Source: Parcubacteria group bacterium (lineage in GTDB: Bacteria > Patescibacteriota > Minisyncoccia > Moranbacterales > GCA-2747515). From it: 64,000 bases of DNA. A program made the position numbers and the translations under genes. Location: contig JBAZXC010000002.1 of assembly GCA_041660065.1 (NCBI GenBank), forward strand, positions 170,620 through 234,619, in the 5' to 3' direction. Of this stretch, positions 26,135-46,401 are shown piece by piece (positions within the stretch are counted from its first letter, which is position 1; each line of letters begins with the position of its first letter). The notes below the pieces were generated by a model that was not told where the DNA came from, ran no database searches, and was given only the letters and a program-made list of their open reading frames with translations.

Positions 26135-26194
26135 AATAAAAAACGACGATGCAACTGACACCGTCGTTAAAATTCTTCTGTGGATTATCTTGAT

Positions 26195-27913: not shown

Positions 27914-27984
27914 ATCTCAATCACATCGAAAGCATCCTCAAAGAACTCGTCGTCGAGGTCCGCGAGCTAAAGGATAAGAAATGA
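27914..27984 (+). pseudogene. remnant of the 3' end of gene 25622..26134 (encodes ..INHIESILKELVVEVRELKDKK*)
   Basis: 68 nt with 5 mismatches vs 26067..26134; no start codon upstream. Confidence 0.55.
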
Positions 27985-28048
27985 AAAAATCGGTCTTTCT
28001 CTCCACAAAGAGAAAGACCGATTGCACGTGATTACGTACTGACAATAT

Positions 28049-30383: not shown

Positions 30384-31136
30384 TTATGTTTTTGCTTGCA
30401 CTGCTGCGACATAATTACAATAATCACAATTTTCCGCTGCCGGAGGAATGTCATCACGCATGAGACACGCGTGCGCATCAGTGATGGTCTGCTCCACCCA
30501 GCTCGCATCACCAACATAGGGGATGACTTTGACATCAAATTCCAATTTACTGTCAAAAGCCTCTTTGTCAGTGTCTCCATTACAATAGACAAAATACCCC
30601 GTGTTTGAGACGGTAAAACCGTTTTTGCGAAAAAGCCATTGATAGATTTCCATCTGCCGTTTGTAACCGATCTGCCACTCCGCATCCAGACTAACTTCCC
30701 CGCTTTTTGACGTTGCCTTATAATCCACGATGATCAATTCTCCTTGCGGATTGACCCACACATCATCCACTCCGCCAGTGACGAGTATATTGGTTTTTTC
30801 ATGCAGATACTGTATACCCCGTCGCAATGAATCCCGCCACTCATCCATCCGCTTATCATCAAACGGCACAGCATCGATACCATATTCTTGCATCAAGGGA
30901 TGCGCTGTTTGACCGACTCTATGGATATCAAATTCTTTTTTGAGCAAAGCATCCACTGCCGAGTTGAGATTGAACGGAAATCCCGGCGGACGCCCCACAC
31001 CGAGCCTCCGGTCCAAATAAAAACATCGTGGACAATTCAAAAACAGATCAATCTTTGACCGCGATAGCTTAAATGCGTTCTCAGATGCAGGATCAAAAAT
31101 ATTGCGCGTTCTTATAGCCTTATAATATTCAGACAT
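30384..31136 (-). CDS. Cas4-like PD-(D/E)XK nuclease with Fe-S cysteines (stand-alone, no CRISPR nearby)
   Basis: N-terminal CPRC, IVDYK catalytic motif, C-terminal C..CDYC; palindrome R1 ~38 nt upstream. Confidence 0.6.
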   Translation of the reverse strand: MSEYYKAIRTRNIFDPASENAFKLSRSKIDLFLNCPRCFYLDRRLGVGRPPGFPFNLNSAVDALLKKEFDIHRVGQTAHPLMQEYGIDAVPFDDKRMDEWRDSLRRGIQYLHEKTNILVTGGVDDVWVNPQGELIIVDYKATSKSGEVSLDAEWQIGYKRQMEIYQWLFRKNGFTVSNTGYFVYCNGDTDKEAFDSKLEFDVKVIPYVGDASWVEQTITDAHACLMRDDIPPAAENCDYCNYVAAVQAKT

Positions 31137-31173: not shown

Positions 31174-31207
31174 GTAACATAATTATACGACCGTATAATT
31201 ATGTGAC
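31174..31207. repeat. 34-bp palindrome R1 GTAACATAATTATACGACCGTATAATTATGTGAC
   Basis: Member of 6-copy family; upstream of Cas4-like nuclease gene. Confidence 0.85.
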
Positions 31208-31301
31208 ACGGTATTGTTGCCTGTTGTATCAATTGATCAATTCTTTAAAAAATTGAGTTGTGTTTTGTCCCATATTTTTATAATTAAGTTATTTGCAAAG
31301 T

Positions 31302-31335
31302 GGTACATAATCGCACGGCCGTGGGATTATGTTAC
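31302..31335. repeat. 34-bp palindrome R2 with ~70-bp conserved left flank
   Basis: GGTACATAATCGCACGGCCGTGGGATTATGTTAC; flank shared with R5 and R6. Confidence 0.85.
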
Positions 31336-31398
31336 GGGGTTTTTAGCATTTGCAGTTTGGATAAATTGCAAAATATGTAATGGGATAGGAATGTAATG

Positions 31399-32007
31399 TT
31401 ATGCATCTTTACGATCCTTCCAAAATTTATGTTTTTTATTCTGCTCATTGACCAATTTTTTCAGCTTGTTCCAATTTTGTTTTTTATTTCCTTCATCCAT
31501 CATCTTATTGATATCTTTTCCGTTTAACCCGGCATACAATGCCGCGATCTCATAACGCACACCTTGATTATCATTTGGATTCATTTTTAGCAAAAGTCGA
31601 TATAATTCAATCGCCTTTTCATTATCTCCTTGATCCCAATAATCATCGCCCATGTATTGTATTGCACGCATGTACGCTCGATTATCCATGTCGCCCCACT
31701 CCATGGATTTCGGCCATTTTGGAAATTTTTTGACCGTTTTTCTAAAAGCGATTCTCGTCACTTCTTCACGCCTTTTGTCATCACCAAGCACGCCATACAC
31801 ACTGATCAAACCAATATACGTTTGCACATAATCATCATCCGCAATTAATGCAGATTGCAGTATTTTTAACGCTTTCTTTGCACCTCTCTTACCTTCATCC
31901 AAGAGATCCATTGCATCATAATAATTATTATTAAGTTCTTCATAATCTATATTTTTGTTGTTCATATATAGTTTATAAATTATTATCATTTTTCCAACTA
32001 CACCCAT
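31399..32007 (-). CDS. TPR-repeat protein
   Basis: Tetratricopeptide-like repeats (AYMRAIQYMGDDYWDQGDNEKAIELYRLLLKMNP). Confidence 0.55.
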   Translation of the reverse strand: MGVVGKMIIIYKLYMNNKNIDYEELNNNYYDAMDLLDEGKRGAKKALKILQSALIADDDYVQTYIGLISVYGVLGDDKRREEVTRIAFRKTVKKFPKWPKSMEWGDMDNRAYMRAIQYMGDDYWDQGDNEKAIELYRLLLKMNPNDNQGVRYEIAALYAGLNGKDINKMMDEGNKKQNWNKLKKLVNEQNKKHKFWKDRKDA

Positions 32008-32033
32008 AGTTAGAAAAACCCACTTTTAAAAAT

Positions 32034-32067
32034 GTAACATAATTATACGGCCGTATGATTATGTGAC
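32034..32067. repeat. 34-bp palindrome R3 (overlaps stop codon of PaaX-like gene, upstream of TPR gene)
   Basis: GTAACATAATTATACGGCCGTATGATTATGTGAC. Confidence 0.85.
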
Positions 32068-32625
32068 TTTTCTTTTAAAGAAATGTTTTTTAAGTTCTGA
32101 TGCATTATCGATGGTTGATGCTGTAATTATACGCACATATTTATCTGCATTGTATAGACGAACGAGATCCAATATCGTTTTTTCGCACGGATATGGTGAT
32201 ACAAAGACGCTTTGTTGCAATTGTTTGAATTCCAACACATAAAGATGTTTGCGCAAAATATCACGAAAGACACGATCATCCTCCGGTATATCAAAGATCA
32301 CAATGCGCCACTTCTTATCCCATTTTTTAGGTTTGACAAATGTTGCAATCGATCCAAATAAGTCCAACTGGTGCGCAATCCTTTTTCCTTGCGCAGTCAA
32401 AACCAGCATAAAAGATCCATCTGGCATCTTGCGTTCTTTGATAAGCTTTTCTTGTGAAAGTCGTTTGAGCGATCGCGCAAAACTGCGACGATTAATTTTT
32501 TGCCAATCTTTGTGCATAACGGAAAGCGTAGCAAAATACTGACCTGGGGAATGGGATAATCCCAGTGCGACACCGCCAAACAACAAAACGAGAATCTTTT
32601 TTTGTAACTTCCCTATTTTATACAT
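32059..32625 (-). CDS. PaaX-family transcriptional regulator-like protein (Cas2-like C-terminal domain)
   Basis: WRIVIFDIPE...LRKHLYVLEFKQLQQSVFVS motif of PaaX_C/Cas2-like fold; palindrome R4 begins 13 nt upstream of start codon. Confidence 0.6.
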   Translation of the reverse strand: MYKIGKLQKKILVLLFGGVALGLSHSPGQYFATLSVMHKDWQKINRRSFARSLKRLSQEKLIKERKMPDGSFMLVLTAQGKRIAHQLDLFGSIATFVKPKKWDKKWRIVIFDIPEDDRVFRDILRKHLYVLEFKQLQQSVFVSPYPCEKTILDLVRLYNADKYVRIITASTIDNASELKKHFFKRKVT

Positions 32626-32637
32626 AGCGCACTAATG

Positions 32638-32671
32638 GTAACATAATCCCACGGCCGTGGGAATATGTTAC
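32638..32671. repeat. 34-bp palindrome R4, candidate autoregulatory operator
   Basis: GTAACATAATCCCACGGCCGTGGGAATATGTTAC, perfect 34-bp palindrome. Confidence 0.85.
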
Positions 32672-32851
32672 TTTTTTACACGTTTGAAATTTGGAGAATT
32701 GTGGTGTATTTCATCCTATATTTTTGCATTGATCATTTATCCCGATAATTTTAACGCAATGAAAGATACCAAACCACATCTATCATTTATTCTTTCAAAA
32801 ATTGAATTGTTTTTTGCCCCGTGTTTTATTTTTTAATGACTTTAGCTATGT

Positions 32852-32885
32852 GGTACATAATTATACGGCCGTGGGAATATGTGAC
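32852..32885. repeat. 34-bp palindrome R5 with conserved left flank
   Basis: GGTACATAATTATACGGCCGTGGGAATATGTGAC. Confidence 0.85.
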
Positions 32886-32979
32886 CTTTGATGCGTCGAT
32901 TGATATCATTTGTCAGACCAATCTTCACATACCCCGGCATCGCCTCGTTGATCAAAATATAGATAATTTCATTTATAGT

Positions 32980-34158
32980 TTATTTTTTAGGTTTTAATAA
33001 CAATAGTAATTCTTCTGATTTCACTCGTGATGCTTTGATTTTATTATTTTTTAGTTTATTGTTTCCTCCTAGAGTACTAAATTTACCAACAATGACATCA
33101 TGAGAATGTTGTCTACTGGACTTATCAATGTCAAAATATTTTCTTGATATCTCCTTAACTAGTTCACCAGAAAGTCCATTGCTACATTTTCCTTTTGGAA
33201 ACGTGAAAATTACTGACACTTTTTTTTGTGCAAGCACACATAAAAGATCATTAAGTGCTTTTTTTGACTGACTTAAATTACTAAAATGTGACTGTGGTCT
33301 CTCCGTAATGTCTGGGTAGCGTCCTACGCCGGATACTGGTCCACATGTGCCTCGTGCGATTGTTTCTAATACGTGATAAAACCTACTATAATGCACACCG
33401 GAATATGGCGGATCAATAAAGACAAGATCGCCCTCTTTAACTTTTGTTTTGATAAAATGGATTGCATCATCCACATATGTCTTTCCTTTTACTTTTGCGT
33501 GTTTTTCAGAAATTTCCTTAAGGGTAGTCTTGCATACATGTATGATATCTCTATGCCATGCGTCATAGAGAAACTTTCCAGCAGTTTCTGTTGGTTGAAA
33601 AGGTTGAGCTGTGTGCCCCGGAGCTGCTATCGTTCGACTTACAGCATCAATAAGCGCTGCAAGACATGCTGTTTTTTCTGTACTGTTTTTTGGTAAATAT
33701 TTTATAAGATAATCAATCGTCAACGCTTGTAATGGACTGAAATAGTGACCGCCATATGCATTCCAGATTGGACCAATACTTGATTTTTTTTCACATAGTT
33801 TTCGTGATTTTTGAACTGTTTTTCTAAGTACACTGATTTTACAATCCTGCAACTTCACTGCTTCATTAAAAAATGTGGAGGATTTTATCTTTGCATTTGC
33901 TTCTTCAATCCATTTATTTTCCAGTGACACAGGATTTAACTTTTTGTCTCGCTCAATAATAGAACCAGACAAAATCTTACCATACATTTGCAAATCAGAA
34001 GCTAAAACAGGCACATTGAAACTTTGTGCAACATGATGCACAACCGATCCAGCACCACAAAAAGGATCCACAAATCTTTTTGCAGTTGGCACGGTTTTTT
34101 TTATTAGTTCACCCAATCCATTATTTAGCATGAACCGCTTTGAGCCCATGTATTTCAT
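32980..34158 (-). CDS. D12-class N6-adenine DNA methyltransferase (Dam-like) with ~100-aa C-terminal extension
   Basis: DPFCGAGS (motif I) and VFIDPPYSG (motif IV, DPPY). Confidence 0.75.
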   Translation of the reverse strand: MKYMGSKRFMLNNGLGELIKKTVPTAKRFVDPFCGAGSVVHHVAQSFNVPVLASDLQMYGKILSGSIIERDKKLNPVSLENKWIEEANAKIKSSTFFNEAVKLQDCKISVLRKTVQKSRKLCEKKSSIGPIWNAYGGHYFSPLQALTIDYLIKYLPKNSTEKTACLAALIDAVSRTIAAPGHTAQPFQPTETAGKFLYDAWHRDIIHVCKTTLKEISEKHAKVKGKTYVDDAIHFIKTKVKEGDLVFIDPPYSGVHYSRFYHVLETIARGTCGPVSGVGRYPDITERPQSHFSNLSQSKKALNDLLCVLAQKKVSVIFTFPKGKCSNGLSGELVKEISRKYFDIDKSSRQHSHDVIVGKFSTLGGNNKLKNNKIKASRVKSEELLLLLKPKK

Positions 34159-34177
34159 ATTTTTGTTTTTTAACTTC

Positions 34178-35335
34178 CTATAGTCCAGATTTTTCTTTCA
34201 GTTCCCTGTACAGAGCTGATGGACCAGTGCCACCCGGAGCATATCTGTCCCTATTAAAATCATCATCTTGCAAATCTATCCGATTAAATATTTCCAAAAA
34301 CTCCTCCTTTGTGACAATATCGCCAACTTTATCAAAACTGAGATAGGCATCTTTTAAAAATCGCATCAAGGCAATAAACCCCGTTGATTTGTTTAATATC
34401 ATATTTTGTTGAACATCGTTCCATGCAGTTGGCCACTTTTGTTGCACTGCAAAAAAATAATTCCACAATATTTGAGCAATATTTGCATCTTCTTCTTCAA
34501 TAAACATATTTCTCAAAAAAAGTTTTTTTTCATCATCACCATTAACTTTATTTGGTATTGAATCTCTTTTATAAATATCCCTATCTTTCATTGCACAAAT
34601 ATTATTTCCTGAGATATACCGAATCAACGAATCAACAAATGTTGCTTGGGTTATTGTCTCAAATCTATCCGTAGCTACACCAAGGATTTTAATTTTACCA
34701 AAAAATGGACTACCCTCCTTCTGATCTAGTGCTCTAGCAATATTATGAGCAGTTTTTTGTGGACTTCTAGTTTTTGTATACTCAAATAAATCTGCAACAA
34801 GTGATTTATTTACCTTTGTGTGGCTTTTATTTATTGTAGCAAAGATAATTGCTTGGTCTTCAATATCCATATCAACAAATATCGTCACATTTAGAGTGAA
34901 ATCTTCATTGTTCAAATCAAGTCCACCCTCTCTCAAACCAGCTAGTCTATGTTGACCATCTAGTATTTTTGCTACATTATTATTTCTGCGAATCATTAAC
35001 TTTCCACTACTTTCATCATAATTAATGTTGCAAATTGCAGAATCGCCAACATTTTCAAACTGACTAATTTCTACAATGATACCAGTTGGAAATGTTGCAT
35101 CTACAAGCTGAACATAGCTCGCTATTTCCTTCACTCTATTTTTTGATAATAATCTTTGAATTCCAATATATTTTTCTAGTTCAGTCGAGTTTGTTTCCAA
35201 ATGTCTTATATCTGCATAAGATATTTCCAGTAAATCTTTATAACCAATTGATGCAACATAAAAAACTCCAACGGGTTGTTTCACCTGAATGCAACTAACT
35301 TCAATATAATTTTCATTATTATTTAAAGTATTCAT
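34178..35335 (-). CDS. DGQHR-domain protein (DndB-like, ParB/Srx fold)
   Basis: Literal DGQHRLAGL motif; adjacent to MTase and R-M genes. Confidence 0.7.
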   Translation of the reverse strand: MNTLNNNENYIEVSCIQVKQPVGVFYVASIGYKDLLEISYADIRHLETNSTELEKYIGIQRLLSKNRVKEIASYVQLVDATFPTGIIVEISQFENVGDSAICNINYDESSGKLMIRRNNNVAKILDGQHRLAGLREGGLDLNNEDFTLNVTIFVDMDIEDQAIIFATINKSHTKVNKSLVADLFEYTKTRSPQKTAHNIARALDQKEGSPFFGKIKILGVATDRFETITQATFVDSLIRYISGNNICAMKDRDIYKRDSIPNKVNGDDEKKLFLRNMFIEEEDANIAQILWNYFFAVQQKWPTAWNDVQQNMILNKSTGFIALMRFLKDAYLSFDKVGDIVTKEEFLEIFNRIDLQDDDFNRDRYAPGGTGPSALYRELKEKSGL

Positions 35336-35850
35336 GATAATTGATTCATAATATCTCTTTGACTCTCCTTATTTTCTTGATCAGGATCAAGATTTTGGGA
35401 TTGACGATAGTGTGCATAATATATCGTACCAAGAGCATAAAGAACAAATATCCCCGATATTAATCCTATATATTGTGTTTTAGTTGGAACAACTGTAGTG
35501 GCCATATAGCCTACAGCAGAAAATATAATTACAACCCAGGAAATCATATATAAGATTTCTGACAAATTTACTGGTTTTTTTGAATAACCTCTCATCATGT
35601 GAATAGCAGAGCCTAATAATGCTGCGCTATATATAAAAAATTCTCCATTTTTCCAGAGTTGATTTATGCTAAAATTATCATCGGTTATGAGTACGTAAAA
35701 AAAAGTGAGCCAAATTGGTAAAAATGAAAAAAATATTGTTACAAAAATGAAAAACACCGACTCCTTATGATCGTCCCAAGCCTGTGTTTCTTTAATTATC
35801 TTAAATATATTCATAATAATTAATTTGCTATTGTAGCATTCAATATTCAA
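35332..35850 (-). CDS. small integral membrane protein (4 TM)
   Basis: ORF, hydrophobic helices; inside defense gene cluster. Confidence 0.4.
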   Translation of the reverse strand: MNIECYNSKLIIMNIFKIIKETQAWDDHKESVFFIFVTIFFSFLPIWLTFFYVLITDDNFSINQLWKNGEFFIYSAALLGSAIHMMRGYSKKPVNLSEILYMISWVVIIFSAVGYMATTVVPTKTQYIGLISGIFVLYALGTIYYAHYRQSQNLDPDQENKESQRDIMNQLS

Positions 35851-35877
35851 ATATGCAAATGACGATTAATATTCACT

Positions 35878-38355
35878 TTATTCACTCCACAATTTAGCGA
35901 TCACATCTTTTGTTTTTTGTTCGTATATGTCGATGAGTTTTTTTGCTGATTCAACCAAAACACGTTCTGCTTCAATTTTTTCTACAATTAGTTTTTGATT
36001 TATTTTTGATGGCAAAGAAATTTTGATGGATCTAATAATTGGCATATTCAAACCACCTCTTTGATTTTCTCCGTTAATGTTTCTTATTTCTTGATATTTT
36101 TCTTTCAAAGAATATAATAAAAATTCTGAGATCAATTTATTTTCATCTGGATTTATAGAAACCAACGATTGATTACAAGCAGCTTCAGTTCTAAGAATGG
36201 CAATGGTCCCACGTGTCTTTCCTTGACCATTCAATGCTATCAAAACAGAGTTTTTTGGCAATAATCTAGCATTTGAATTATCTAATCCAAGCTGTGTAAT
36301 CCTACCTTCACAATCATAAATTTCCCCTCTATGGATATCACCAGAAACAAGCCACTTAATATCCCCATTATAATATTCTTTAATTGTGGATCGTGGAGTG
36401 CCTCCTGTCATGAGCGTAGAAACATCTCCAATCTTTACCTTTTTCCACTCTGGGTCAATTTCAATTTTTGGCTTCCAATTTTCTGTGATTTGTTTTGCGC
36501 CGGTGATGATTTTTTGATAGCCATCCAATTCTGCTACGATTTTTTCTTGGATTTCGAGAGGTGGAAGTGGAATTTTTGTTGATTTTAATTTTCCAAAATG
36601 TCTTTTGTACCCGTCAGATTCTATTGGATTTACTATTAAATAATAATACAAAAATTTTGGAAGCAATTTGTCATTTGTCTGCAAAATTTTAATACCATCT
36701 GCACCTTGAATAAAATTATTTTCAATATATTTAATTGCGCAGGTATGATCACCAAAAACAATCACTGGGTTTTGTACTGATATTATGGCATCTACATCAT
36801 CGCTCCAACCAGATATATTATCTTGAGATTGATCAATGACAGGATATCGACCATCACTTTTTATATCTTCTTTTTTTAATTTTTTTGGTGGAACAATCGT
36901 AAGTATTAAGTCTTCAATTTTTATCATTGGCCATTTTACATTTGTATAATCTACAGATTCAAAATAGCGATCGCCACTCAAATTATAATCTCCACTCTCC
37001 ACAATTTTAGATTTTTTAACGGCTGTTGCTATAGATTCCGGATCAAGTCCGGAATGACATGATGAAGGCATCGTTTGATTTTCTTTCCATGCATTTAAAA
37101 TTTCCACTGCACATGACAAATCATTTTTATCACTTGGTCTGCGCTGTGCGCCGAGATCAAAACCATCATTGGCGATTTTGACAAAAAGAATTTCGTCATT
37201 CGTTTCCTTTTTGGTCTTGTCAAAAAAGAGGATTGACGTCTTCACACCTGCATACGGATTAAAAACGCCACTCGGCAAACTTACCACAGCCCAAAGCCCT
37301 GCATCTTCTACAAGCTTCTCACGAATCGCTTTATGCGCACGAGCTGCCTGAAAAATCACGCCCTCTGGTACAATCACGCCACATCGCCCACGATCAGTCA
37401 GATGACGAATCATATAATTGAGAAAAAGCACTTCAGTCGCTCCTGTGTCCATCTGCAATTCTTCTGCCACTGCCGCACGATCGATCTTGCCCGCGAATGG
37501 TGGATTTGCCAATATGATATCCCATTTTGTCGTTTCCCCTTGCGTATCCACAAGTGAATTGCGTCGCTTAATCGTCGCATGTGGCAATTTATGAAAGTAT
37601 AAATTCATGAGACCGAATTTGATCATATCCGGATCACTGTCAAACCCCGTGAATGCTTGATTTTCCAAAAATTTCTGTTGTTTTCCTGTGAGGATATCCA
37701 TCGGAAATTTTCCCGCTTTTTTAAAATCATCAGTTGTGTACTTCTGTTTCAAATGATCCAATGCCGCAACAAGAAATCCGCCCGTACCACAGGCCGGATC
37801 ACAAATACTTTCTTCTGCCTTTGGATCGATGACGTCTACAATAAATTTGATAATATGTCTTGGTGTGCGGAACTGTCCTCCTGTGCCCGCTGATGCGATA
37901 CTGGAAAGCAAATATTCATAAAGATCGCCAAAAAGATCCGATCGTGTTGTTTTTTCTTCAGATTCTAGATCTGCCATCAATTCTTCGATTTTATGCACGA
38001 CTGTACGCAGTGCCGGTCTGGCAAAAAGTTTCACATGTGCTTTGTTGTAAAGCATCTTCACTGTTGGATTCGTTGTTTTTTCTGCAATTTTTTCAAAGGC
38101 ATCTCCCAAGTGTCCGAAAAGAGCATCTGCATTGAGACTGAGAATATTATCCCACTGATAAATTGCCAGCTCCCCACTTAAAACCGGTTTATATTTTTTG
38201 TCCAACAGTTTTTGCTCTTGATCATGCTTGTGTAGTTCGCGTAAAAAAATAATATAAATCATGAGTTCAATCACCGCCGTATGATTGGTAAGACCGCCAG
38301 CCCAAATGACATCCATAATGCTATTGATCTTGCTACGAAATTCTTGTAATGACAT
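35878..38355 (-). CDS. hsdMS: Type I R-M methyltransferase fused to specificity subunit (HsdM-HsdS single polypeptide, two TRDs)
   Basis: HsdM N-domain, motif I DPACGTGGF, motif IV LANPPFAG; C-terminal half has two target-recognition domains each ending in conserved LPPLEIQEKIVAELD / LPSKINQKLIVEKIE. Confidence 0.85.
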   Translation of the reverse strand: MSLQEFRSKINSIMDVIWAGGLTNHTAVIELMIYIIFLRELHKHDQEQKLLDKKYKPVLSGELAIYQWDNILSLNADALFGHLGDAFEKIAEKTTNPTVKMLYNKAHVKLFARPALRTVVHKIEELMADLESEEKTTRSDLFGDLYEYLLSSIASAGTGGQFRTPRHIIKFIVDVIDPKAEESICDPACGTGGFLVAALDHLKQKYTTDDFKKAGKFPMDILTGKQQKFLENQAFTGFDSDPDMIKFGLMNLYFHKLPHATIKRRNSLVDTQGETTKWDIILANPPFAGKIDRAAVAEELQMDTGATEVLFLNYMIRHLTDRGRCGVIVPEGVIFQAARAHKAIREKLVEDAGLWAVVSLPSGVFNPYAGVKTSILFFDKTKKETNDEILFVKIANDGFDLGAQRRPSDKNDLSCAVEILNAWKENQTMPSSCHSGLDPESIATAVKKSKIVESGDYNLSGDRYFESVDYTNVKWPMIKIEDLILTIVPPKKLKKEDIKSDGRYPVIDQSQDNISGWSDDVDAIISVQNPVIVFGDHTCAIKYIENNFIQGADGIKILQTNDKLLPKFLYYYLIVNPIESDGYKRHFGKLKSTKIPLPPLEIQEKIVAELDGYQKIITGAKQITENWKPKIEIDPEWKKVKIGDVSTLMTGGTPRSTIKEYYNGDIKWLVSGDIHRGEIYDCEGRITQLGLDNSNARLLPKNSVLIALNGQGKTRGTIAILRTEAACNQSLVSINPDENKLISEFLLYSLKEKYQEIRNINGENQRGGLNMPIIRSIKISLPSKINQKLIVEKIEAERVLVESAKKLIDIYEQKTKDVIAKLWSE

Positions 38356-38358
38356 TTT

Positions 38359-40779
38359 TTATATTTTTAATATTTTACTTGTGGCAATATCTTCCGCCAT
38401 TTCGATCAGTTCTTCCTCTTTAAATCGTTCTAACCATTCACCCGGTCTATACACGTTAAATGGTGGCTCTGATAAAAATGACACATTTCTCTCCTGTGCA
38501 GATCGCACCACTTTCTCACGCAATTCATCGTTGGTCGTCATCTTGGCAAAAATCAGTCGTGACATCAATGTGCGCTCTTGATCCGCACCTGGCTCTATAC
38601 CGTATTTTTGTACCATATCCTCCATCCATTGATCTCTCTGCGAATCACGCGTTGGAAGCTCTTCCTTGCCCAGTGCACTGAGTACAAAATTACGAATGGA
38701 TACAATTACACCAAAACCTTCTTGCAATTTATCTTCTGAAAAATATTCTTTTGGTTTGTTAAATACGTGTTCATCCAAAAATAGACTCAACTCTGCCTCA
38801 CGCTCTTCATCTTCTGCCATCTTGAGAACTTCCCCATTTTCTGCGACAATTTCTTGAATTGCTTTGGTCCATGCGGATTGATACATGTTTTTGTCCACTG
38901 CATCACCATCGGGACCAACCGTCATTTTATCCCTGGTAAGCACAGCATCATCATCGTTGCTCACAATTGGTGTAAATGGCGACGGCGTTTCAGTTCCACC
39001 ATCGCCAATAACTCCCTCACCTCTGCCACCTGTCACCGTAGCCCCCTTTAATATTAATGGGGTTTTGAGTGGCGCTTCCCAATCATATTTTTCTTCAAAG
39101 TATTCCACAACACCGCAAAAATCAAAAATCGTAAAAAACTCTTTTTTAAAATCTTTACCATCATGGTGAAACGTGTACAAACGTGTGCCGCGTCCCTTAA
39201 TTTGCTGATATGAGGTTGTTTCAAAAATCGGTCGTGCAAGTACGATATTGAGAACTTCCGGACAGTCAAAACCTGTGGTGAGCATATCTACTGATACCGC
39301 AACACGCATACGTTGATTTTCTGGATCCTTGAATTCTTTGGCGATTTGTTGTGCATTCATCACACTACTCGTAATTGTTTTGGCAAATTGTCCACCATAT
39401 GCCGGCATCATCTCATTGAGAATTTTTTCCAACTTCAGTGCATGCCGCTGTGATACCGCAAAAATAATCGACTTGCCAATTTCTCCATCAGGTGCTTTAT
39501 TGGCATTATCGAGAAATTCCTGCATCATCGTGCGGTTCGTTTTTTCCAAATAGACCTTCTTTTCCAAATCTCGAATTGTAAAGGATTCGCCCTTTGCCTC
39601 GGATACTTCCAAACCCTCTGGACTAAGTGCCTTTTGCGTAAGCACCGTGTTCATTTTGTGAAATCGTGGACCGACAAGAAATGGCCCCTGTGAATCGCCA
39701 ATGCCATCTTGAATAGTATAACGATATGTTGCCACACCATCCGCACATCCAAAAAACTTATATGTATCTCTCTGAAGACGTTTTTCAAATGCACGCGGAT
39801 CATCTATTTGTAATTGTGATTCATCAATATTTTTGAGAAAGTCTTTCGGTGTGGCAGTGAGACCAACTTTTGTCGCTCCGTAAAAACGATCTGTTGCAGC
39901 ACGTGCTTGTGCAGAATATATACTGCGGTGTGCCTCATCATGAATAATTAAATCAAAATACCCCGGTGAAAAATAATCTTCGCCATTCTTAATCATGCTT
40001 TGAATTGTTGCCACCACAACATTTGCGCCAACAATATTATTGCGTGCACTTCCCCAAAATGTGGCAATGGATGATAAATCACCTAAAATTGGTTCGAATG
40101 CCCCCTTGGTTTGTGTAGCAAGTGTAATACGGTCTACAAGAAAGAGAACATTTTGCGCCTGGTGTGTTTCTAAAAATTTGCGAATAAGCGCAGCCGCAAG
40201 TCCAGTCTTACCCGTCCCCGTTGCCATCTCCAAAAGAAATGCTCTTTTGCCGGCATCATATCCTTCGGCAATTGTATTGATTGCTTCTACTTGATAATGG
40301 CGCAATGAAAAATTACTCGGATCAACTCTTTGTAAATAGTCTGGTGTGATCGGATTGCGCGTAAGTGGCACTACATTACCCATCGTATCAGCATTTCTTT
40401 TGCGCTCAAGATCCCGTTGTGTATAAAATTCATTTACTTGAATCGCATCTCCTTTGGTAATATCCCAAAAATAAATAACGTGATCATTTGCCAAATAAAT
40501 ATATTGGATTTTTCCTTTATACTGAGCATCCACATAATTTAACGCCTGTTGTTTGGCGCTATACGGATCAATTTCTGGTGCCTTTGCTTCAATAAGCGCT
40601 AATGGTTGTCCAGATGAGTTTTTCAAAATATAATCCGATCGTCCTGCAACGCCATGATCTTCAAAAATAACTTGTTGAAAACTTTCAATATCCCATTTGG
40701 CATCCCGCAATTTTCTATCAATAACAACACGTGAAAAAGCTTCACTCATAGATATAACATCATAATATAACTCTTTCAT
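38359..40779 (-). CDS. hsdR: Type I restriction enzyme R subunit
   Basis: N-terminal PD-(D/E)XK (DYIL...EAK), helicase motif I ATGTGKT, motif II DEAH; start set at MKELYY. Confidence 0.85.
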   Translation of the reverse strand: MKELYYDVISMSEAFSRVVIDRKLRDAKWDIESFQQVIFEDHGVAGRSDYILKNSSGQPLALIEAKAPEIDPYSAKQQALNYVDAQYKGKIQYIYLANDHVIYFWDITKGDAIQVNEFYTQRDLERKRNADTMGNVVPLTRNPITPDYLQRVDPSNFSLRHYQVEAINTIAEGYDAGKRAFLLEMATGTGKTGLAAALIRKFLETHQAQNVLFLVDRITLATQTKGAFEPILGDLSSIATFWGSARNNIVGANVVVATIQSMIKNGEDYFSPGYFDLIIHDEAHRSIYSAQARAATDRFYGATKVGLTATPKDFLKNIDESQLQIDDPRAFEKRLQRDTYKFFGCADGVATYRYTIQDGIGDSQGPFLVGPRFHKMNTVLTQKALSPEGLEVSEAKGESFTIRDLEKKVYLEKTNRTMMQEFLDNANKAPDGEIGKSIIFAVSQRHALKLEKILNEMMPAYGGQFAKTITSSVMNAQQIAKEFKDPENQRMRVAVSVDMLTTGFDCPEVLNIVLARPIFETTSYQQIKGRGTRLYTFHHDGKDFKKEFFTIFDFCGVVEYFEEKYDWEAPLKTPLILKGATVTGGRGEGVIGDGGTETPSPFTPIVSNDDDAVLTRDKMTVGPDGDAVDKNMYQSAWTKAIQEIVAENGEVLKMAEDEEREAELSLFLDEHVFNKPKEYFSEDKLQEGFGVIVSIRNFVLSALGKEELPTRDSQRDQWMEDMVQKYGIEPGADQERTLMSRLIFAKMTTNDELREKVVRSAQERNVSFLSEPPFNVYRPGEWLERFKEEELIEMAEDIATSKILKI

Positions 40780-40887
40780 TCTACCCCCTATCCCACCAAA
40801 AATCAAAAAAATGGCTTTTTTATGGTGTTTTTTTTGGTGTTGCTATTTATTTCATTTTATCATGATGCTCTTTTGATAACATATACC

Positions 40888-40985
40888 AGATTGCTACACC
40901 CAACTCAAAGAGGGCTCGCAATGACAATGGGAGATTGCTACACCCACTCAAGGAGAACTCGCGATTGGCGATGGGAGATCACTTA
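40888..40985. repeat. 44-bp tandem repeat, 2.2 copies (AGATTGCTACACCCAACTCAAAGAGGGCTCGCAATGACAATGGG)
   Basis: Read from sequence upstream of hsdR. Confidence 0.6.
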
Positions 40986-41128
40986 CTAAGAGATACGAGG
41001 AGTGGCTATGTGTGTATTGAAATACACTTTTTACATGGCACATTTCACACATATTGAGATTTTTGCTATGATATCTATAAATAATTGCACCATCACCATT
41101 AGATCATCATACTATTGAGGAGGATTTC

Positions 41129-41284
41129 ATGGCTGGACACGGAACCAACAAAACAGGCAACAAAAAAAGCAATGGACGGCGAGCCGGAATCAAGACAAAA
41201 GGTCGTGCCAAACAAATGCCACCCACAATCGCTGCCAAAAGAGAGCAGGAGAAGCGTGAAAGAAGCAGAAATAACCGCTATTAG
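41129..41284 (+). CDS. 51-aa lysine/arginine-rich small protein (module copy 1)
   Basis: MAGHGTNKTGNKKSNGRRAGIKTKGRAKQMPPTIAAKREQEKRERSRNNRY; SD GAGGAGG; paralog at 45332..45487 with >90% DNA identity over first 80 nt. Confidence 0.45.
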   Translation: MAGHGTNKTGNKKSNGRRAGIKTKGRAKQMPPTIAAKREQEKRERSRNNRY

Positions 41285-41311
41285 TCGTTAAAACGACCAA
41301 CAACTCCCCAT

Positions 41312-41348
41312 GGAGACAGTGTGCAACATCACCTGTCTCCCTTTTTTA
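41312..41348 (+). terminator. intrinsic terminator GGAGACAG..CTGTCTCC + T-run (conserved in module copy 2 at ~45515..45550)
   Basis: Read from sequence. Confidence 0.6.
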
Positions 41349-41441
41349 ATGTGTTGCATTTTTATCAATTTTGTGTTAGGATGGCACGTCGTGTACATTT
41401 AACAATTTCCTAAACAAACCCTACATCACGGAGGAATACCT

Positions 41442-41732
41442 ATGCAGAGCATCACATCACGTGACATTATCAGCACAAAGTACACCATCATAGATGGCAA
41501 ATCAGTCATCCTCATCTTGCTTGTGAAGTTGCCCCTGGTCAGACTACCTCTTGAACGAACTACATGGCTTGTTGACAAATCTGCACCGACCAATAGCGTT
41601 GAAATCTCAGAAGAGCCCAATCAAGGAACCGCAGAATGTGATTTTACCATTGTAGGTGACACGATGGAAACATTGCGCGCATTTGGACATCAGATTCTCA
41701 CCGACTCATTTAATGAAATATTGTGGAGATAA
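41442..41732 (+). CDS. 96-aa hypothetical protein (module copy 1)
   Basis: Paralog of 45647..45937 (~35% aa identity, shared C-terminal ..FARQILTD.F); own SD and terminator. Confidence 0.45.
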   Translation: MQSITSRDIISTKYTIIDGKSVILILLVKLPLVRLPLERTTWLVDKSAPTNSVEISEEPNQGTAECDFTIVGDTMETLRAFGHQILTDSFNEILWR

Positions 41733-41959
41733 CCTGGACTCTCCCCTATCGCCACAACCGACGACATGTCTATACATGTTGTCGGTTTTTATTTTTTATT
41801 AATTTATGTTAATTGTCTTTTTTTAATAATGTATCACTGTACGCCCCCCCTTGCATGCTCATGATAACAATTATTATTACTCCTTGACTAATTTTTGAAT
41901 ATAAAAAAGCGTGACCCTCATTAAGTCACGCCTACTTTGATATTTGCAGAGATTTCTGC

Positions 41960-42298
41960 TCAACTTTTTTTACTTGCCGCTTCCAATAATGCACCTACCA
42001 GGATCGCAGCACCGACACCAACTGCCACTTTTGCTACTTTACCCATAGGCTTTTTTGGAGCATCTTGCGGATAATCTTGCGGTTCCACATCATATGCTAG
42101 GCCAGCAGTAAAAAAACCTTCTTTTCTTTTTTTTGTTCGACCGCACCTAGGGCATTGATGATATGTGAACCCATCAGTATCGCCACATGTTCGCTCCATG
42201 TCAACAGGGATTCTTATAATCCGTGTTCTCCCATATCCAATCTCTTCCTCCGACTCATCAAAACAACTTTTACATTTCATAATATCACCCTCCTCCAA
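41960..42298 (-). CDS. zinc-ribbon protein with C-terminal TM helix
   Basis: CKSC...CPRC; C-terminal VAVGVGAAILVGALL. Confidence 0.4.
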   Translation of the reverse strand: MEEGDIMKCKSCFDESEEEIGYGRTRIIRIPVDMERTCGDTDGFTYHQCPRCGRTKKRKEGFFTAGLAYDVEPQDYPQDAPKKPMGKVAKVAVGVGAAILVGALLEAASKKS

Positions 42299-42401
42299 GT
42301 TTTGCGCTTACCTCCTAATTGCCTCTTCGACAAAGAACTTCTAATTTCATTATCAATACCATATTACAAATATGCTAATTTGTCAAGGTTCATCAATATT
42401 T

Positions 42402-43445
42402 TTATTCTTCTTTCACACGGTTTTGTTTCACTATAAAATGATCTTCGGGATATGTCATTTTTTGTTCCTCTGCAAGTTTTCGCAAATATCCCTTCCCCAT
42501 CGTTTTCTCAATCAGTCGTGCAAGTGGCAAAAGATGTCCTGTGAAATGTGCTTTTGCAAAAACAGCAAAGACATCTTCGCGCGATGCGAATTGTTCAGAA
42601 CTTTTTTCATAGATTTGGTCAATAAGCTTATTGAGAAATTGTCGCTCTTCGAGATATACATCAGCTGTCCCCCATTTGGACATTCCTTCATAGCCCCTCT
42701 TATGCAGTTCTCTCACAAATGTGCCTGAAATACGCTCCGTTTCATCAAATCCAGGATAAGTTTCATCACGAAAATTCATTCCGGCCTCAAGAGCAGGTAT
42801 GTCCGCAAAATTCTCCACTGCAAATCGTCTTGCCAATTCCTCTGTGACAGCCTCATTCAACATTTCAAAATACCCATAGCCACCTTCTTTATCTTGCATA
42901 CCAAAGATTCTCATGCCGTCTCTTCGTCTATGATAGTGCAATTTGCTCTTTTCATCATCTTGCCATTGTGCATGTACTGTTTGATATTCTTGCAAGTGAA
43001 TCAATTCATGTGAAAGGACTTTTGCAAATTTTACAAGATCATCATGACGAAATAGATTTATCAAGGCACCTTGAATCTCCATTATATAAAGTCCATCACA
43101 CATTGAGCCATCTTCATCGCGAAATCTTGACCAATTAGATTTTGATAACTTTTTTTGATCTATAATATGGATATGATCAGCGGTGATTTTAGTATATATT
43201 CCACCATAGCGTTCCACAAAGTCTTTCATTTTTTCATTGACAGCATCAATAATCTCAGATTCATCGTCTGTTTTCTCTCTTTCAAAGCCATAAAATTCTT
43301 GATTTTCAAATAGATCCGCAAAGAATTCCAATGCTTTTTCTTCATCTTCTTTATTTTTCATCAATGCGCGTGAAATAGTTGTTTTTCTTTCCGGCGTATT
43401 TTCCGCGGGAGCTTGTGCAACGGGTTGTTCAAATGGATTTTTCAT
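42402..43445 (-). CDS. hypothetical protein with HExxH metallopeptidase motif
   Basis: VLSHELIHLQEY. Confidence 0.45.
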   Translation of the reverse strand: MKNPFEQPVAQAPAENTPERKTTISRALMKNKEDEEKALEFFADLFENQEFYGFEREKTDDESEIIDAVNEKMKDFVERYGGIYTKITADHIHIIDQKKLSKSNWSRFRDEDGSMCDGLYIMEIQGALINLFRHDDLVKFAKVLSHELIHLQEYQTVHAQWQDDEKSKLHYHRRRDGMRIFGMQDKEGGYGYFEMLNEAVTEELARRFAVENFADIPALEAGMNFRDETYPGFDETERISGTFVRELHKRGYEGMSKWGTADVYLEERQFLNKLIDQIYEKSSEQFASREDVFAVFAKAHFTGHLLPLARLIEKTMGKGYLRKLAEEQKMTYPEDHFIVKQNRVKEE

Positions 43446-43558
43446 ATGTGGGCATTTTTTTATCTTTGAATCAGTATTCCGATACTATATCTTTCCCTGA
43501 TATTCTATTAATTATTTTTTTTATATCAATTTTTCCTTCTTCTTTTTCCTCTGTTATA

Positions 43559-44545
43559 TCATTTTCCATTCAATAATAACAATATCAGTCCGATCATGCG
43601 ATCTTTGTCGCGTGGTTTTGATTCTGCCACAAGCAGTGTGATCGTGGTAAGTGATTCCGGCGTGATCTTTTTTTGGAAATCAATACCCGTTTTGTGCAAA
43701 AACCACACAAATGCAAATGCGCCCGTACGCTTATTGCCATCGTTAAACGGGTGATTTTTCACGACAAAATATAGTAGATGTGCAGCTTTTTCTTCAATAC
43801 TCGGATACATATCAGCGCCAAACGCTGATTGCAAAACGTTACCCAATATACCTTCAAGATTTTTTTCTTGTTTTTCTTGTGCAAACAGATCCGATGCTTG
43901 TTTTTTGGCAATCAAATCTTTCTTTAAATCACCTACAGCACTGTACAAATCACTCGCACGCAGTGATACATCTTTTTTTGTTACACCCTTGTGTGGCAAC
44001 CGATCTTCATCATAGGCTTCCAATGAAAACCATGTACCGGCAAATGTTTTGATCAGTTCCAAAATATCATCTGTTTTGATCGTATGATCTTTTGGTAGCA
44101 GCTTTTGTACGTGTTCTACCGCTGTGAGAAAATTGTCATAATTTTTGCCAATCCGTTGCGGATTGATGAGATATCCTTTTGTGATATATTGTCCGAGAAT
44201 TTTATTAGCCCAACGTCTAAACTCAATTGCGCGAACAGAATTTGTTCTATATCCAACCGCTAAAATAATATCCAAGTTATAGAAATTCACTGTCCTAGTT
44301 TGCATTTTCCCCTCTATCGCTCCGTGTTTTGTGGTATGTGCAAAATTTGCACATACCACTTTCTGATCAAGTTCTTTATCAGAAAAGATGTTTTTAATAT
44401 GTTTGACAATCACAGTTCTATCAACATCAAAAATCTCGGCAATTTGTTTTTGTGTTGCCCAAATTGTTTCATTATCAAAATCCTCACGAAGTTCTATTGC
44501 TCCGTTTTTTGCTTGATAAATTGCCAATTGTTTCTTGTTTGCCAT
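43559..44545 (-). CDS. RhuM-family N-domain fused to Fic/Doc domain protein
   Basis: Fic motif HPFNDGNKRTG; N-terminal ~130 aa resemble virulence protein RhuM family. Confidence 0.75.
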   Translation of the reverse strand: MANKKQLAIYQAKNGAIELREDFDNETIWATQKQIAEIFDVDRTVIVKHIKNIFSDKELDQKVVCANFAHTTKHGAIEGKMQTRTVNFYNLDIILAVGYRTNSVRAIEFRRWANKILGQYITKGYLINPQRIGKNYDNFLTAVEHVQKLLPKDHTIKTDDILELIKTFAGTWFSLEAYDEDRLPHKGVTKKDVSLRASDLYSAVGDLKKDLIAKKQASDLFAQEKQEKNLEGILGNVLQSAFGADMYPSIEEKAAHLLYFVVKNHPFNDGNKRTGAFAFVWFLHKTGIDFQKKITPESLTTITLLVAESKPRDKDRMIGLILLLLNGK

Positions 44546-45331
44546 GGATATATTTTGTTTTAAATTAGCACATTCATTCTACCCTTTTTCCCTATTCCCT
44601 GCCAATGTGATGCAATTTTTAAACTCTTCAGAATTCCCGAATGGTTGGGGATGTTTAAAATCCCTCTTTAATTCCTACCTACCGGCAGGCAGGCCCCCTT
44701 TACAAAAAGGAGATATGCAAAATTTTTTTGTGTGATAACAAATTTACAGCCAAGCACAGGTAATAAAAATGGGCATCAGTGATTTACACCAATGCCCTTT
44801 GCAAATTTACCAAGGGTTCTTCCCTCTTTTTTACAGATTTAACGGATCAATTTCGTCATGATTATCCAAAACGATCATCCCCTCCACGGTAATGTATCGT
44901 ATGGGAATTTTGACTCCAGGTGGCAACACAAGTCCATTCGTCTTGCTAATATCTTTTTTTTACAATGATATCGAGTCGCTTGGCTCTCGTCTCTTTCCTT
45001 TGGCGATCCCTCCCCACTTCCACTACGCGATCATAGTGAATTTGTTGACGGTATTGAATCGCTTGTGATCTCATCTTATCCCTATTTTGGCACCCTCTTT
45101 TCATCTTGTCCCCCATATTTTTGTTGAATTTGATCAAACTGGAGACTCATCTTATCCGCTTGTGTATTTATCTAAAGAACTTCGTTTTGTAATCGACTAT
45201 AAAAAAGAGTACACGGCGAGCCGGCTCATGTCAATTTTTTTGCACATTTCACACGCATTGCGTTTTTTGCTATGATAGCAATAAATGGATTTTACCGAAC
45301 CATAAACCATCCCAATGACAAGGAGGATCTC

Positions 45332-45487
45332 ATGGCTGGACACGGAACTAACAAAACAGGCAACAAAAAAAGTAATGGACGGCGAGCCGGAATCAAAACA
45401 AAAGGTCGTACCAAACCAGTGCCCCCCAATATCGTTGCAAAAAGAGAACAAAAAAAGCGCGAAAAGGGTCGACCTACCCGCTATTAG
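45332..45487 (+). CDS. 51-aa basic small protein (module copy 2)
   Basis: MAGHGTNKTGNKKSNGRRAGIKTKGRTKPVPPNIVAKREQKKREKGRPTRY; conserved promoter (..CACATTTCACAC..TTTTTGCTATGATA) shared with copy 1. Confidence 0.45.
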   Translation: MAGHGTNKTGNKKSNGRRAGIKTKGRTKPVPPNIVAKREQKKREKGRPTRY

Positions 45488-45646
45488 TCGCTCAAACGAC
45501 CAATAGCTCTCTACGGAGACAGGATGCAACATCACCTGTCTCTATTTTTTTGGCGTTGTGTATTTTTCAATTGTGATATACAATGACTCATCGCGTTATT
45601 TAACAGTTTTTTTTGGAAAAACCCCTACATTTCGGAGGAGTATTTC

Positions 45647-45937
45647 ATGATAAAAATCACTACGGACGATATCATCAACACAAAGTGCATCATCACGGGT
45701 GACAAAGTAACCGTCCTCATCATCCACCTGAAAGGTAAGGTGCTAAAAATTCCCCTTGATAATACCATGTGGATCACTACAAATAAAATGCCGGAAAATA
45801 CAGTTTTGATCGCGTCAAAAGAACCCAACGATGAATCTGCTGAACGCACTTTCATCATTGCGAGCTCTTCGGTCGAATACTTGCACGAATTTGCACGTCA
45901 AATTCTTACTGACACATTTGATCCAAACGAATTCTAA
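45647..45937 (+). CDS. 96-aa hypothetical protein (module copy 2)
   Basis: Paralog of 41442..41732; followed by terminator CGACGACATGTGTAGACATGTGTCGG-like hairpin + T-run. Confidence 0.45.
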   Translation: MIKITTDDIINTKCIITGDKVTVLIIHLKGKVLKIPLDNTMWITTNKMPENTVLIASKEPNDESAERTFIIASSSVEYLHEFARQILTDTFDPNEF

Positions 45938-46129
45938 ATGCCCCGATACAACCGACACATGTCTACACATGTCGTCGGTTTTTTTATCTTTTTGATTCGC
46001 GTTGATTACCTTGGAATCACTTACGTTATCTACTCAAAGATCAATTCCGCGATCTTCCCTCTAATAAGTTCTTTGAAAAACTGTATTGTGCTCTGCCCCA
46101 TATTTTTATTTTTAAATTATTTACAACGT

Positions 46130-46163
46130 GTAACATAATTATACGGCCGTGGGATTATGTTAC
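46130..46163. repeat. 34-bp palindrome R6 with conserved left flank, 240 nt upstream of AAA-CYTH gene
   Basis: GTAACATAATTATACGGCCGTGGGATTATGTTAC. Confidence 0.85.
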
Positions 46164-46401
46164 GCGGTATTTTTAACGTTGCATTCATAATTATAATATT
46201 TTTTTCATTAAAATTTCATGTAAGTAATTGATTGCTTAATTAAAGGTACCTGACCCCATTTATCAAATGTGTTTAGACATTACCAAAAAATATTGACTTT
46301 TTACTGTATTTATATTATTATTTCCTGTCAGATCTTTGACAAGTAAATATCCATACATTTTTGATCACTATCGTTTCAACCCAAAAAATTGGAGGCTACA
46401 T

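Follow-up and report, generated by a model that had tools for sequence, protein, structure and literature searches.

Introduction

The closest described counterpart of the system considered here is PaaX of Escherichia coli, whose operator is a long split palindrome (TGATTC-N27-GAATCA), with autorepression of Px (PMC9493321). The present analysis concerns a 64-kb stretch of the genome of a Parcubacteria group bacterium belonging to the Moranbacteria (contig JBAZXC010000002.1, positions 170,620 to 234,619; in the following the window, which always means the whole stretch), in which six copies of a 34-bp palindrome (R1 to R6) accompany the gene of a 188-aa PaaX-like protein. In common with PaaX of E. 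coli and Pseudomonas, this protein consists of an N-terminal winged helix and a Cas2-like PaaX_M domain, and its best fold match in the PDB is the PaaX structure 8a39. An unusually long palindromic site and autoregulation, known for PaaX and predicted here, are further shared traits. The differences are equally clear: the window protein comprises 188 aa instead of ~305-316 aa and is devoid of the C-terminal (phenylacetyl-CoA) domain, no paa genes are found near its gene, the sites bracket the gene on both sides, and the site itself is one uninterrupted palindrome of 34 bp around a conserved G+C core, whereas PaaX recognizes two hexamers with a free spacer.

Three other described systems invite comparison. 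CIRCE is a long conserved inverted repeat of wide taxonomic range, located between promoter and start codon, that is bound by the repressor HrcA and is reported to act also as an mRNA hairpin. The palindrome shares with CIRCE/HrcA the long, highly conserved inverted repeat and a dedicated, here putative, repressor; however, the proteins belong to different families, the CIRCE spacer is not self-complementary, and CIRCE shows neither a downstream bracket at hrcA nor lineage-wise diversification of its sequence. REPtrons (RAYT plus REPs) likewise combine a single-copy gene flanked by cognate palindromes with extra intergenic copies and co-diversification of protein and repeat, but here an HUH/Y1 transposase is missing, the copies are few, and the conserved blocks survive where the hairpin is broken. 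As in integron attC arrays and Acinetobacter pdif modules, co-oriented genes are parted by palindromic sites that overlap stop codons and coincide with breakpoints in gene content; in contrast to these, the sites lack a neighbouring recombinase gene and are conserved in sequence as well as symmetric, and their centre spans 14-16 bp instead of 6-8 bp. An integron attC array was rejected, as no integrase lies within 10 kb and the sites are conserved and symmetric. Our search of the literature found no description of PaaX in the Candidate Phyla Radiation (CPR) or of these palindromes.

Judged from sequence comparison, the palindrome is probably the cognate double-stranded DNA operator of the 188-aa protein, which would regulate its own gene and a small regulon close by. 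This reading is the best supported one because of the conservation of the site, the geometry of the bracketing copies, their enrichment beside the gene, the fold of the protein, and the co-variation of protein and site. Binding itself, repression and the geometry of the dimer we infer.

The palindrome in the window

A pattern search of the window yields six copies of the palindrome (Table 1). With the full 34-mer and up to 3 mismatches 5 of the 6 copies are recovered; the inner 28-bp pattern ACATAAT-N3-ACGGCCGT-N3-ATTATGT recovers 6 of 6 at no more than 1 mismatch, and 100 dinucleotide-preserving shuffles of the window contain zero matches. These searches confirm the number and the coordinates of the copies given in a first-pass annotation that was made from the DNA letters alone, and the gene positions it assigned to R4, R3 and R1 are correct as well: R4 ends 12 nt before the ATG of the regulator gene, R3 overlaps the stop codon of this gene, and R1 is located 37 nt before a nuclease gene. 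Its description of the copies as near-perfect holds for R1, R3 and R4, where 15-16 of 17 arm positions are paired, less so for R2 and R6 (14/17), and not for R5 (11/17). The triplets of R1 are TAT and ATA, which gives TATAAT on each strand; the minus strand reads GTGTCA-16-TATAAT. The overlap of R3 with the end of the PaaX-like gene reads ..AAA GTC ACA TAA, and the distance from R3 to the following gene, encoding a TPR protein, is 26 nt for the longest open reading frame (ORF) or ~68 nt if the start is placed as called in locus L120.

Several known types of repeat were considered and rejected for this element. A CRISPR array does not agree with the irregular spacings (128, 732, 604, 214 and 13278 nt) and the genes between copies. 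A dif/Xer site is incompatible with six copies and a central region of 14-16 bp (6-8 bp in dif); moreover, the GC skew is monotonic across the window, without a switch, hence the window is not a replication terminus and the palindrome is not dif. The arms bear some likeness to the XerD half-site (TTATGTTA) that is absent from the palindromes of other lineages. A DNA-uptake sequence was dismissed on copy number. The Rfam scan of the window gave 0 matches, and the tRNA scan of the window found nothing.

The PaaX-like protein

The protein is identical to the NCBI entry 'hypothetical protein WC819_03495 [Parcubacteria group bacterium]' and has at least 579 homologues of ~185 aa each, all of which carry PF20803. 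Pfam assigns this domain (PaaX_M, the Cas2-like central domain) to the window protein with an E-value of 3.2e-23 (82 bits, cut-off 24); the same search gives no PaaX_C match, and the chain ends at residue 188. The score against the NCBIfam PaaX equivalog TIGR02277 is far below the cut-off (31.7 versus 264.55 bits). In an AlphaFold2 model (30 homologues, pLDDT 78) a winged helix precedes a domain of ferredoxin-like fold. Foldseek places E. coli PaaX (8a39, E = 4.7e-6) first among the matches of this model, then the PaaX-like structures 3l09 and 3kfw, and further down Cas2, VapD and winged-helix regulators of the MarR, PadR and ZitR types. The model helices 27-58 and the wing strands 62-76 match the winged helix-turn-helix (wHTH) proteins MarR, PadR, ZitR and RosR, and in profile alignment the N-terminal part resembles HxlR-type regulators (QsrR, YodB). 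Since PaaX_M and the PaaX fold are present whereas the C-terminal domain and an adequate TIGR02277 score are absent, the protein is predicted to be a truncated DNA-binding protein of the PaaX type and not a PaaX orthologue.

Neither Pfam nor Foldseek reveals features of HUH or Tyr transposases in the protein, and the window contains no further paralogue of the regulator. No paa genes are located near the regulator in the window or in the close relatives L116 (IMS_BF-2) and L119, whose proteins are 88% and 84% identical, respectively, and whose regulator genes also lie at the edge of a defence island.

Occurrence in other genomes

An exact-pattern scan of one genome per prokaryotic species detects the motif ACATAAT-N3-ACGRYCGT-N3-ATTATGT at 35 loci from other species. 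The hosts are nearly all metagenome-assembled genomes (MAGs) of Candidatus Moranbacteria (Moraniibacteriota), together with one Doudnabacteria MAG (protein 32% identical) and one that bears the label Saccharibacteria; some of the MAGs are filed under names like 'Bdellovibrionales' or 'Micavibrio', probably wrongly. The sites at these loci are essentially always intergenic, and their sole recurring neighbour is an orthologue of the 188-aa protein. The regulator is bracketed, with one site shortly before the start codon and another at or just after the stop codon, in L004, L005, L008, L012, L014, L015, L020, L021 and others; a site directly upstream of the start codon is found for orthologues in at least 11 loci ascertained through the palindrome and in many ascertained through the protein. 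The association of palindrome and regulator across relatives, which the first-pass annotation had proposed as a check, is thus borne out by bracketed orthologues in many species. Most sites lie 0-65 nt before a start codon, about 5 are in convergent gaps, and two are at the 3' end of uvrB; overlap with the stop codon of the upstream gene is frequent. There are ~7 copies per genome, and 6 of those in IMS_BF-2 lie no more than 12 kb from the regulator. A viral collection of 2.9 million contigs is free of the motif, and no target-site duplications are seen at the ends of the palindrome units.

Two of these loci have additional features. Locus L025 contains three identical copies, with identical flanks, of the variant palindrome AGGACATGAGATGACGGCCGTCATCTCATGTCCT within 1.5 kb (positions 214, 1091 and 1689), adjoining one canonical copy at position 924, which suggests a second class of sites, and perhaps a second paralogue, in that genome. 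In L026, a palindrome is followed by a 600-nt stretch (4883-5485) of higher G+C content than the adjoining DNA, in which no ORF is convincing. This stretch matches nothing in Rfam, lacks homologues at the other loci, and may be an unrecognised RNA.

A complementary set of 80 metagenomic loci was fetched by the protein only (30-66% identity), and the flanks of the gene were searched de novo for palindromes; 68 of the loci are distinct. In many relatives one and the same long, near-perfect palindrome stands on either side of the gene, and its sequence is specific to the lineage (for example TCCTCACCAATGTCCGGCCGGACATTGGTGAGGA, AAAATCTCACTAAAAACGCGACCGCGTTTTTAGTGAGATTTT, ACAGTGAGAATGCGATCGCATTCTCACTGT, ATTGACAACAATAACGCGGCCGCGTTATTGTTGTCAAT and ACACTTATAATGCGCTATAGCGCATTATAAGTGT). 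More distant relatives have different palindromes of 30-42 bp that retain the same architecture, lineage-specific arms around a G+C-rich palindromic core; CCTCACCAATGTCCGGCCGGACATTGGTGAGG is a palindrome of a class foreign to that of the window. Across the 68 distinct loci the density of long palindromes is 1.36 per kb beside the gene and 0.049 per kb elsewhere, a 28-fold enrichment. At a strict threshold, 20 of 64 loci have an upstream palindrome, 27 of 62 a downstream one, and 14 of 59 one on each side; the upstream copies in this set mostly end 0-65 nt before the start codon.

The class of palindrome follows the clade of the protein and the residues of the presumed recognition helix. The helix RS[LI]KRLS occurs mostly with ACATAAT arms (L039 and L040 are exceptions with other arms), and RS.R[RK]L[SC] mostly with TCATAAT arms, where L015 reads RSMGRLC. 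The helix RSFSVLA is found with CCTCACCAATGT, and two adjacent paralogues combine RALNNAIRDLY with ACAGTGAGAAT and RMLEKAISSLY with CCCTGAGATA. Co-variation of class and clade of this kind would be expected for a sequence-specific protein paired with its own site. A single 788-kb contig, Ga0209319_1000001 (L037 and L113), harbors two divergent regulator paralogues (64% and 37% identical to the query) with separate palindrome classes; therefore genomes can carry several orthogonal pairs of protein and site.

Probable recognition as duplex DNA

A palindrome may be conserved as a double-stranded binding site or as a hairpin, and the complementarity of the two halves was evaluated for 75 distinct canonical sites against 500 shuffles. 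Paired cells amount to 82.5% compared to 69.9% after shuffling, and changes on both sides number 215 compared to 90; none of the 500 shuffles attained these figures, and pairing in slid controls is 28-45%. Taken by itself, maintained complementarity is compatible with a hairpin as well as with a symmetric dimer of co-evolving specificity. The conservation is, however, organised in blocks (CATAAT, ACG, CGT and ATTATG) that are split by variable triplets, with arm centres ~20 bp apart, about two helical turns. Among the 18 sites of the window's own clade, triplet complementarity is 33% compared to 44% after shuffling, while the blocks are intact. RNA folds of the six window copies in gene-sense orientation range from -21 kcal/mol (R4) over -17.6 kcal/mol (R1) to -6.1 kcal/mol (R5), the latter being no better than shuffled sequence (z about 0). 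Mismatches on the sense strand of the regulator-adjacent palindromes comprise 7 G.T, 10 A.C and 30 others, that is, no excess of G.U pairs. Recognition of the duplex is favoured because of the block-wise conservation, the poorly paired triplets in the window's own clade, the poor fold of R5 and the missing G.U bias; selection for a sense-strand RNA hairpin was rejected, given the same lack of G.U bias and the very uneven fold energies. With respect to termination signals, a T-run follows about one third of the sites, A-tracts often precede them, and the consensus flank is AA...TTT. Among the six window copies only R3 has a U-tract in gene sense, and a reading of the flanks in other species shows that most sites downstream of the regulator are without one.

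Proposed mechanism and points against it

If the palindrome is an operator, a symmetric dimer would set its two recognition helices on the CATAAT and ATTATG blocks, about two helical turns apart, while other parts of the protein, probably the wings, would touch the central ACG..CGT. Dimerisation would proceed through the Cas2-like domain; a C-terminal ligand domain is lacking. Occupation of R4, perhaps together with R5, in front of the regulator start would result in autorepression, and R1 and R3 would place the Cas4-like nuclease gene and the TPR gene under the same control. The site after the stop codon and those in the successive gaps of relatives could be further operators, roadblocks or insulators between co-directional genes, or partners in DNA looping. 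In some lineages the palindromes may double as hairpin terminators.

A number of observations weigh against this scheme. The downstream site is at least as frequent as the upstream one (27/62 versus 20/64) and persists where the next gene is convergent (L005, L021 and L035). A canonical site lies just after the uvrB stop codon in two species (L007:6858 and L026:4849), and the gap in L007 is convergent. Outside the window's clade the variable triplets are complementary in 75% of cases (40% after shuffling) and the outer bases in 82% (32%), and such excess complementarity at unconserved positions is not demanded by a simple model of a dimer on duplex DNA; an added role as terminator or roadblock, or template-switch 'correction' of quasi-palindromes, are possible causes. 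Flanking genes other than the regulator are heterogeneous and not conserved. No consistent sigma-70-like promoter can be placed relative to the sites, and an internal TATAAT has no general strand bias (11 sense versus 8 antisense); the variable triplet as a directional -10 box was hence rejected as a general rule and is at most specific to a clade. A simple operator model leaves the downstream bracket, the convergent-gap sites, the uvrB 3' sites and the mirror covariation unexplained. The operator proposed in the first-pass annotation stands insofar as the palindrome is tied to the PaaX-like protein by bracketing sites and co-variation, and falls short at the downstream-bracket, convergent-gap and uvrB sites, which go beyond it.

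Neighbouring genes and cassette-like variation

Table 1. Palindrome copies, genes and small ORFs of the locus (coordinates refer to the window).
Feature	Coordinates	Strand	Remarks
R1	31174..31207	.	palindrome GTAACATAATTATACGACCGTATAATTATGTGAC; 37 nt upstream of Cas4-like gene
R2	31302..31335	.	palindrome GGTACATAATCGCACGGCCGTGGGATTATGTTAC; beyond stop of TPR gene, then small minus-strand ORF
R3	32034..32067	.	overlaps PaaX-like stop codon, upstream of TPR gene; conserved "downstream bracket"
R4	32638..32671	.	12 nt upstream of PaaX-like ATG; conserved "upstream bracket"; presumed autoregulatory operator
R5	32852..32885	.	most degenerate copy (11/17); 226 nt upstream of PaaX-like gene; edge of defence island
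R6	46130..46163	.	far edge of defence island; then 23-codon small minus-strand ORF
PaaX-like gene	32059..32625	-	presumed palindrome binder; 188 aa; winged helix and Cas2-like domain (PaaX_M)
TPR protein gene	31399..32007	-	between R3 and R2; cassette-like variable neighbour; missing here in L116 and L119
PD-(D/E)XK / Cas4-like nuclease gene	30384..31136	-	downstream of R1; candidate regulon member
Defence / restriction-modification (R-M) island	32980..44545	-	bracketed by R5 and R6; ~13-kb R5-R6 stretch
Small ORF after R2	31229..31273	-	MGQNTTQFFKELIN*; part of unit common to R2, R5 and R6
Small ORF after R6	46030..46101	-	MGQSTIQFFKELIRGKIAELIFE*; homologous small ORF follows palindrome at L119:7604
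Degenerate small ORF after R5	32790..32819	-	start codon lost (ACG)

According to Pfam, genes for a D12 methylase, a DndB-like protein, an HsdM-S fusion of type I, HsdR and RhuM-Fic are found in the island bracketed by R5 and R6. Pfam also supports the labels given earlier to this region and to the genes for the PaaX_M, TPR, PDDEXK_1/Cas4 and AAA_28+CYTH proteins. The corresponding island encodes PLD-SNF2, an Eco57I-type methylase, ThsB-TIR and Mrr in L116, and Vsr, a MutH-like protein, Dcm and a NucS-like protein in L119, so that the content is wholly different among the three genomes. In both relatives, palindromes occupy successive gaps between short co-directional genes beside the regulator. 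Around the regulator, the homology of the window to the relatives extends from the outer edge of one bracketing palindrome to that of the other; the homologous block (window 32677-32033, L116 9949-10595) has 82% DNA identity. The indels that distinguish L116 and L119 (a 184-aa gene with a site, NUDIX plus SDR, and a 74-aa gene) each abut a palindrome. Ordinary recombination between the 34-bp repeats could have produced this cassette-like modularity, as could a more specific process. Genes for integrases, resolvases or transposases are absent within 10 kb in the window, L116 and L119.

Genes whose start faces a site encode Mrr-like and PD-(D/E)XK nucleases, RarA/MgsA, Fpg, an HhH-GPD glycosylase and a dCMP deaminase, and further NUDIX, RhuM, KilA-N, Rrf2 and rhodanese proteins. 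This candidate regulon has a flavour of DNA repair and defence. An SOS-type regulon was not taken beyond a hint: although uvrB, fpg, the HhH-GPD glycosylase gene, rarA/mgsA, NUDIX and nuclease genes are among the flanking genes, the set is heterogeneous, some sites are at 3' ends, and a comparative-genomics paper of 2017 on the DNA-damage network of Patescibacteria reportedly assigns that regulon to LexA. The small regulon of nuclease and defence-adjacent genes postulated in the first-pass annotation agrees with the few, clustered copies and with nuclease, defence and repair neighbours, but the link from R6 to the AAA-CYTH gene behind it is weak. The distance from R6 to the start of that gene is 172-238 nt, and its membership in the regulon is doubtful because the gene has a promoter-like TTGACT-17-TATTAT of its own at 46293-46321, 130 nt beyond R6; R6 probably does not control it.

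R2, R5 and R6 share a longer unit (31236-31344 versus 46064-46172, 81% identity over 109 nt). The sharing of a flank of about 70 bp had been noted correctly, but its interpretation as promoter-like is not tenable: a plus-strand promoter was rejected, as the flank is conserved only as a spacer and small ORF behind the palindrome on the minus strand. Read on this strand, which is that of the neighbouring genes, the palindrome is followed by a spacer of ~30 nt and then by a small ORF, MGQ(N/S)T(T/I)QFFKEL. The counterpart after a palindrome in L119 (MGQNTIQLFKTI*, L119:7660-7698) differs mostly by synonymous changes, and the peptide is conserved in the two species. The small ORF may encode a leader peptide, be a very small gene in its own right, or be what is left of a lost cassette gene.

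Further repeats were noted in the window. A two-gene module is duplicated on the plus strand (41038-41790 and 45242-45990, ~84-87% identical), one copy being part of the defence island and the other directly preceding R6. Each copy consists of a promoter-like TTGCTATGAT..TATAAAT, a very basic ORF of ~50 aa (MAGHGTNKTGNKKSNGRRAGIKTKGR...), a hairpin terminator, an ORF of 77-96 aa without a Pfam match, and a second terminator (AACCGACGACATGTCTATACATGT...). Terminator-like hairpins with T-runs occur in two near-identical pairs spaced 0.5-1.1 kb apart (16751-16790/17886-17925 and 53301-53345/53796-53840), which suggests that terminators are commonly duplicated locally in this genome. Positions 25891-26037 contain a tandem coding repeat of 21 nt with many acidic codons (GAT ATT AGC GAG GAT GTG GAA...), and a 73-nt segment that includes a gene end (26067-26139) is duplicated 1.85 kb away at 27917-27989 with 92% identity.

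Alternative explanations

The downstream bracket, the convergent-gap sites, the mirror covariation and the breakpoints at sites keep a boundary-element or cassette reading open, at a low probability. The palindrome might be a protein-bound boundary or hairpin element that insulates neighbouring genes, either as an extruded DNA hairpin or as a duplex roadblock, and that brackets the gene of its own binder, formally similar to a REPtron. We regard this explanation as unlikely. It would account for the two-sided bracketing across the family, for the perfect symmetry over 30-42 bp with its mirrored double changes (215 versus 90 in shuffles), for sites in convergent gaps and at the uvrB 3' end, and for the filled successive gaps of co-directional genes in L116 and L119; yet the protein resembles PaaX, MarR and Cas2 folds and not an HUH or Tyr transposase, genomes contain ~7 copies instead of tens to hundreds, and the window's own clade has lost hairpin quality while the sequence blocks were kept. 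A centre composed solely of G+C, as in this element, should be an obstacle to cruciform extrusion and not an aid. The sites might alternatively be recombination sites that delimit mobile cassettes at a defence hotspot, in the manner of integron attC or dif modules, with the PaaX-like protein as an accessory or site-recognition factor. The homology to L116 and L119 that begins and ends at outer palindrome edges, the indels that all abut a palindrome, the different islands of relatives that share ~82% DNA identity in the regulator, the direct repeats formed by R5, R6 and their shared flanks around the 13-kb island, and the frequent position on the stop codon of the upstream gene all speak for such a role. 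We nevertheless hold it to be distinctly improbable: integrase, resolvase and transposase genes are missing within 10 kb in the window, L116 and L119, a centre of 14-16 bp is too long for a tyrosine-recombinase core, the element is multi-copy and off any GC-skew switch (hence not dif), no pair of excised or empty sites is demonstrated, and ordinary homologous recombination, too, should leave breakpoints at conserved 34-bp repeats. A broader version of these ideas, to which we assign a slim chance, sees a large wHTH-Cas2-like family across Parcubacteria in which each member has its private, perfect 30-42-bp palindrome; beyond any operator function, these palindromes would be the working sites of a new system of cassette exchange or insulation that is based on a protein of the Cas2 fold and is integron- or REPtron-like in its logic. 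They would bracket the gene of their own protein and delimit cassettes at the edges of variable defence islands.

Plain intrinsic, possibly bidirectional, terminators that were locally duplicated and have no dedicated protein would explain the T-run after about one third of the sites and the A-tracts often found before them, the strong RNA stems that R1 and R4 can form (-17 to -21 kcal/mol), and the T-runs of the uvrB 3' sites, and other repeated terminator hairpins exist in the window (families D15 and D20). Terminators would, however, not need block-wise conservation across species down to 32% protein identity, nor would they abut start codons as the upstream sites do or switch class along with the neighbouring protein; in addition R5 does not fold, a sense U-tract is confined to R3 among the window copies, and most sites downstream of the regulator have none. 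We thus consider this explanation very unlikely. A dispersed selfish repeat, comparable to a MITE or REP and named as an alternative in the first-pass annotation, is largely refuted and retains hardly any credibility. The paralogous flanks of ~100 bp at R2, R5 and R6 and the three identical variant copies with identical flanks in L025 are what such an element might leave behind, but target-site duplications are absent from the unit ends, the copy number is very low and clustered (6 in 64 kb, ~7 in the genome of a relative), orthologous positions are held across species, the viral contigs are free of matches, and the shared flank is a small ORF and not a terminal repeat.

Implications

Almost nothing is known about transcriptional regulation in CPR/Patescibacteria, nearly all of which are uncultured. 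The pair of protein and palindrome, probably a regulator and its operator, is concrete and widely conserved in uncultured Parcubacteria and provides a rare testable handle on their gene regulation. Its specificity is readable, with helix variants matched to arm variants and adjacent paralogues that have distinct sites, and can be tested in vitro with synthetic protein and DNA, without cultivation. The regulator also adjoins a hotspot of exchange of defence and repair genes among close relatives, and the breakpoints coincide with the palindromes. If it is true that the sites exceed the role of operators and act as insulators or recombination boundaries, they would represent a new way to organise accessory genes in very small genomes.

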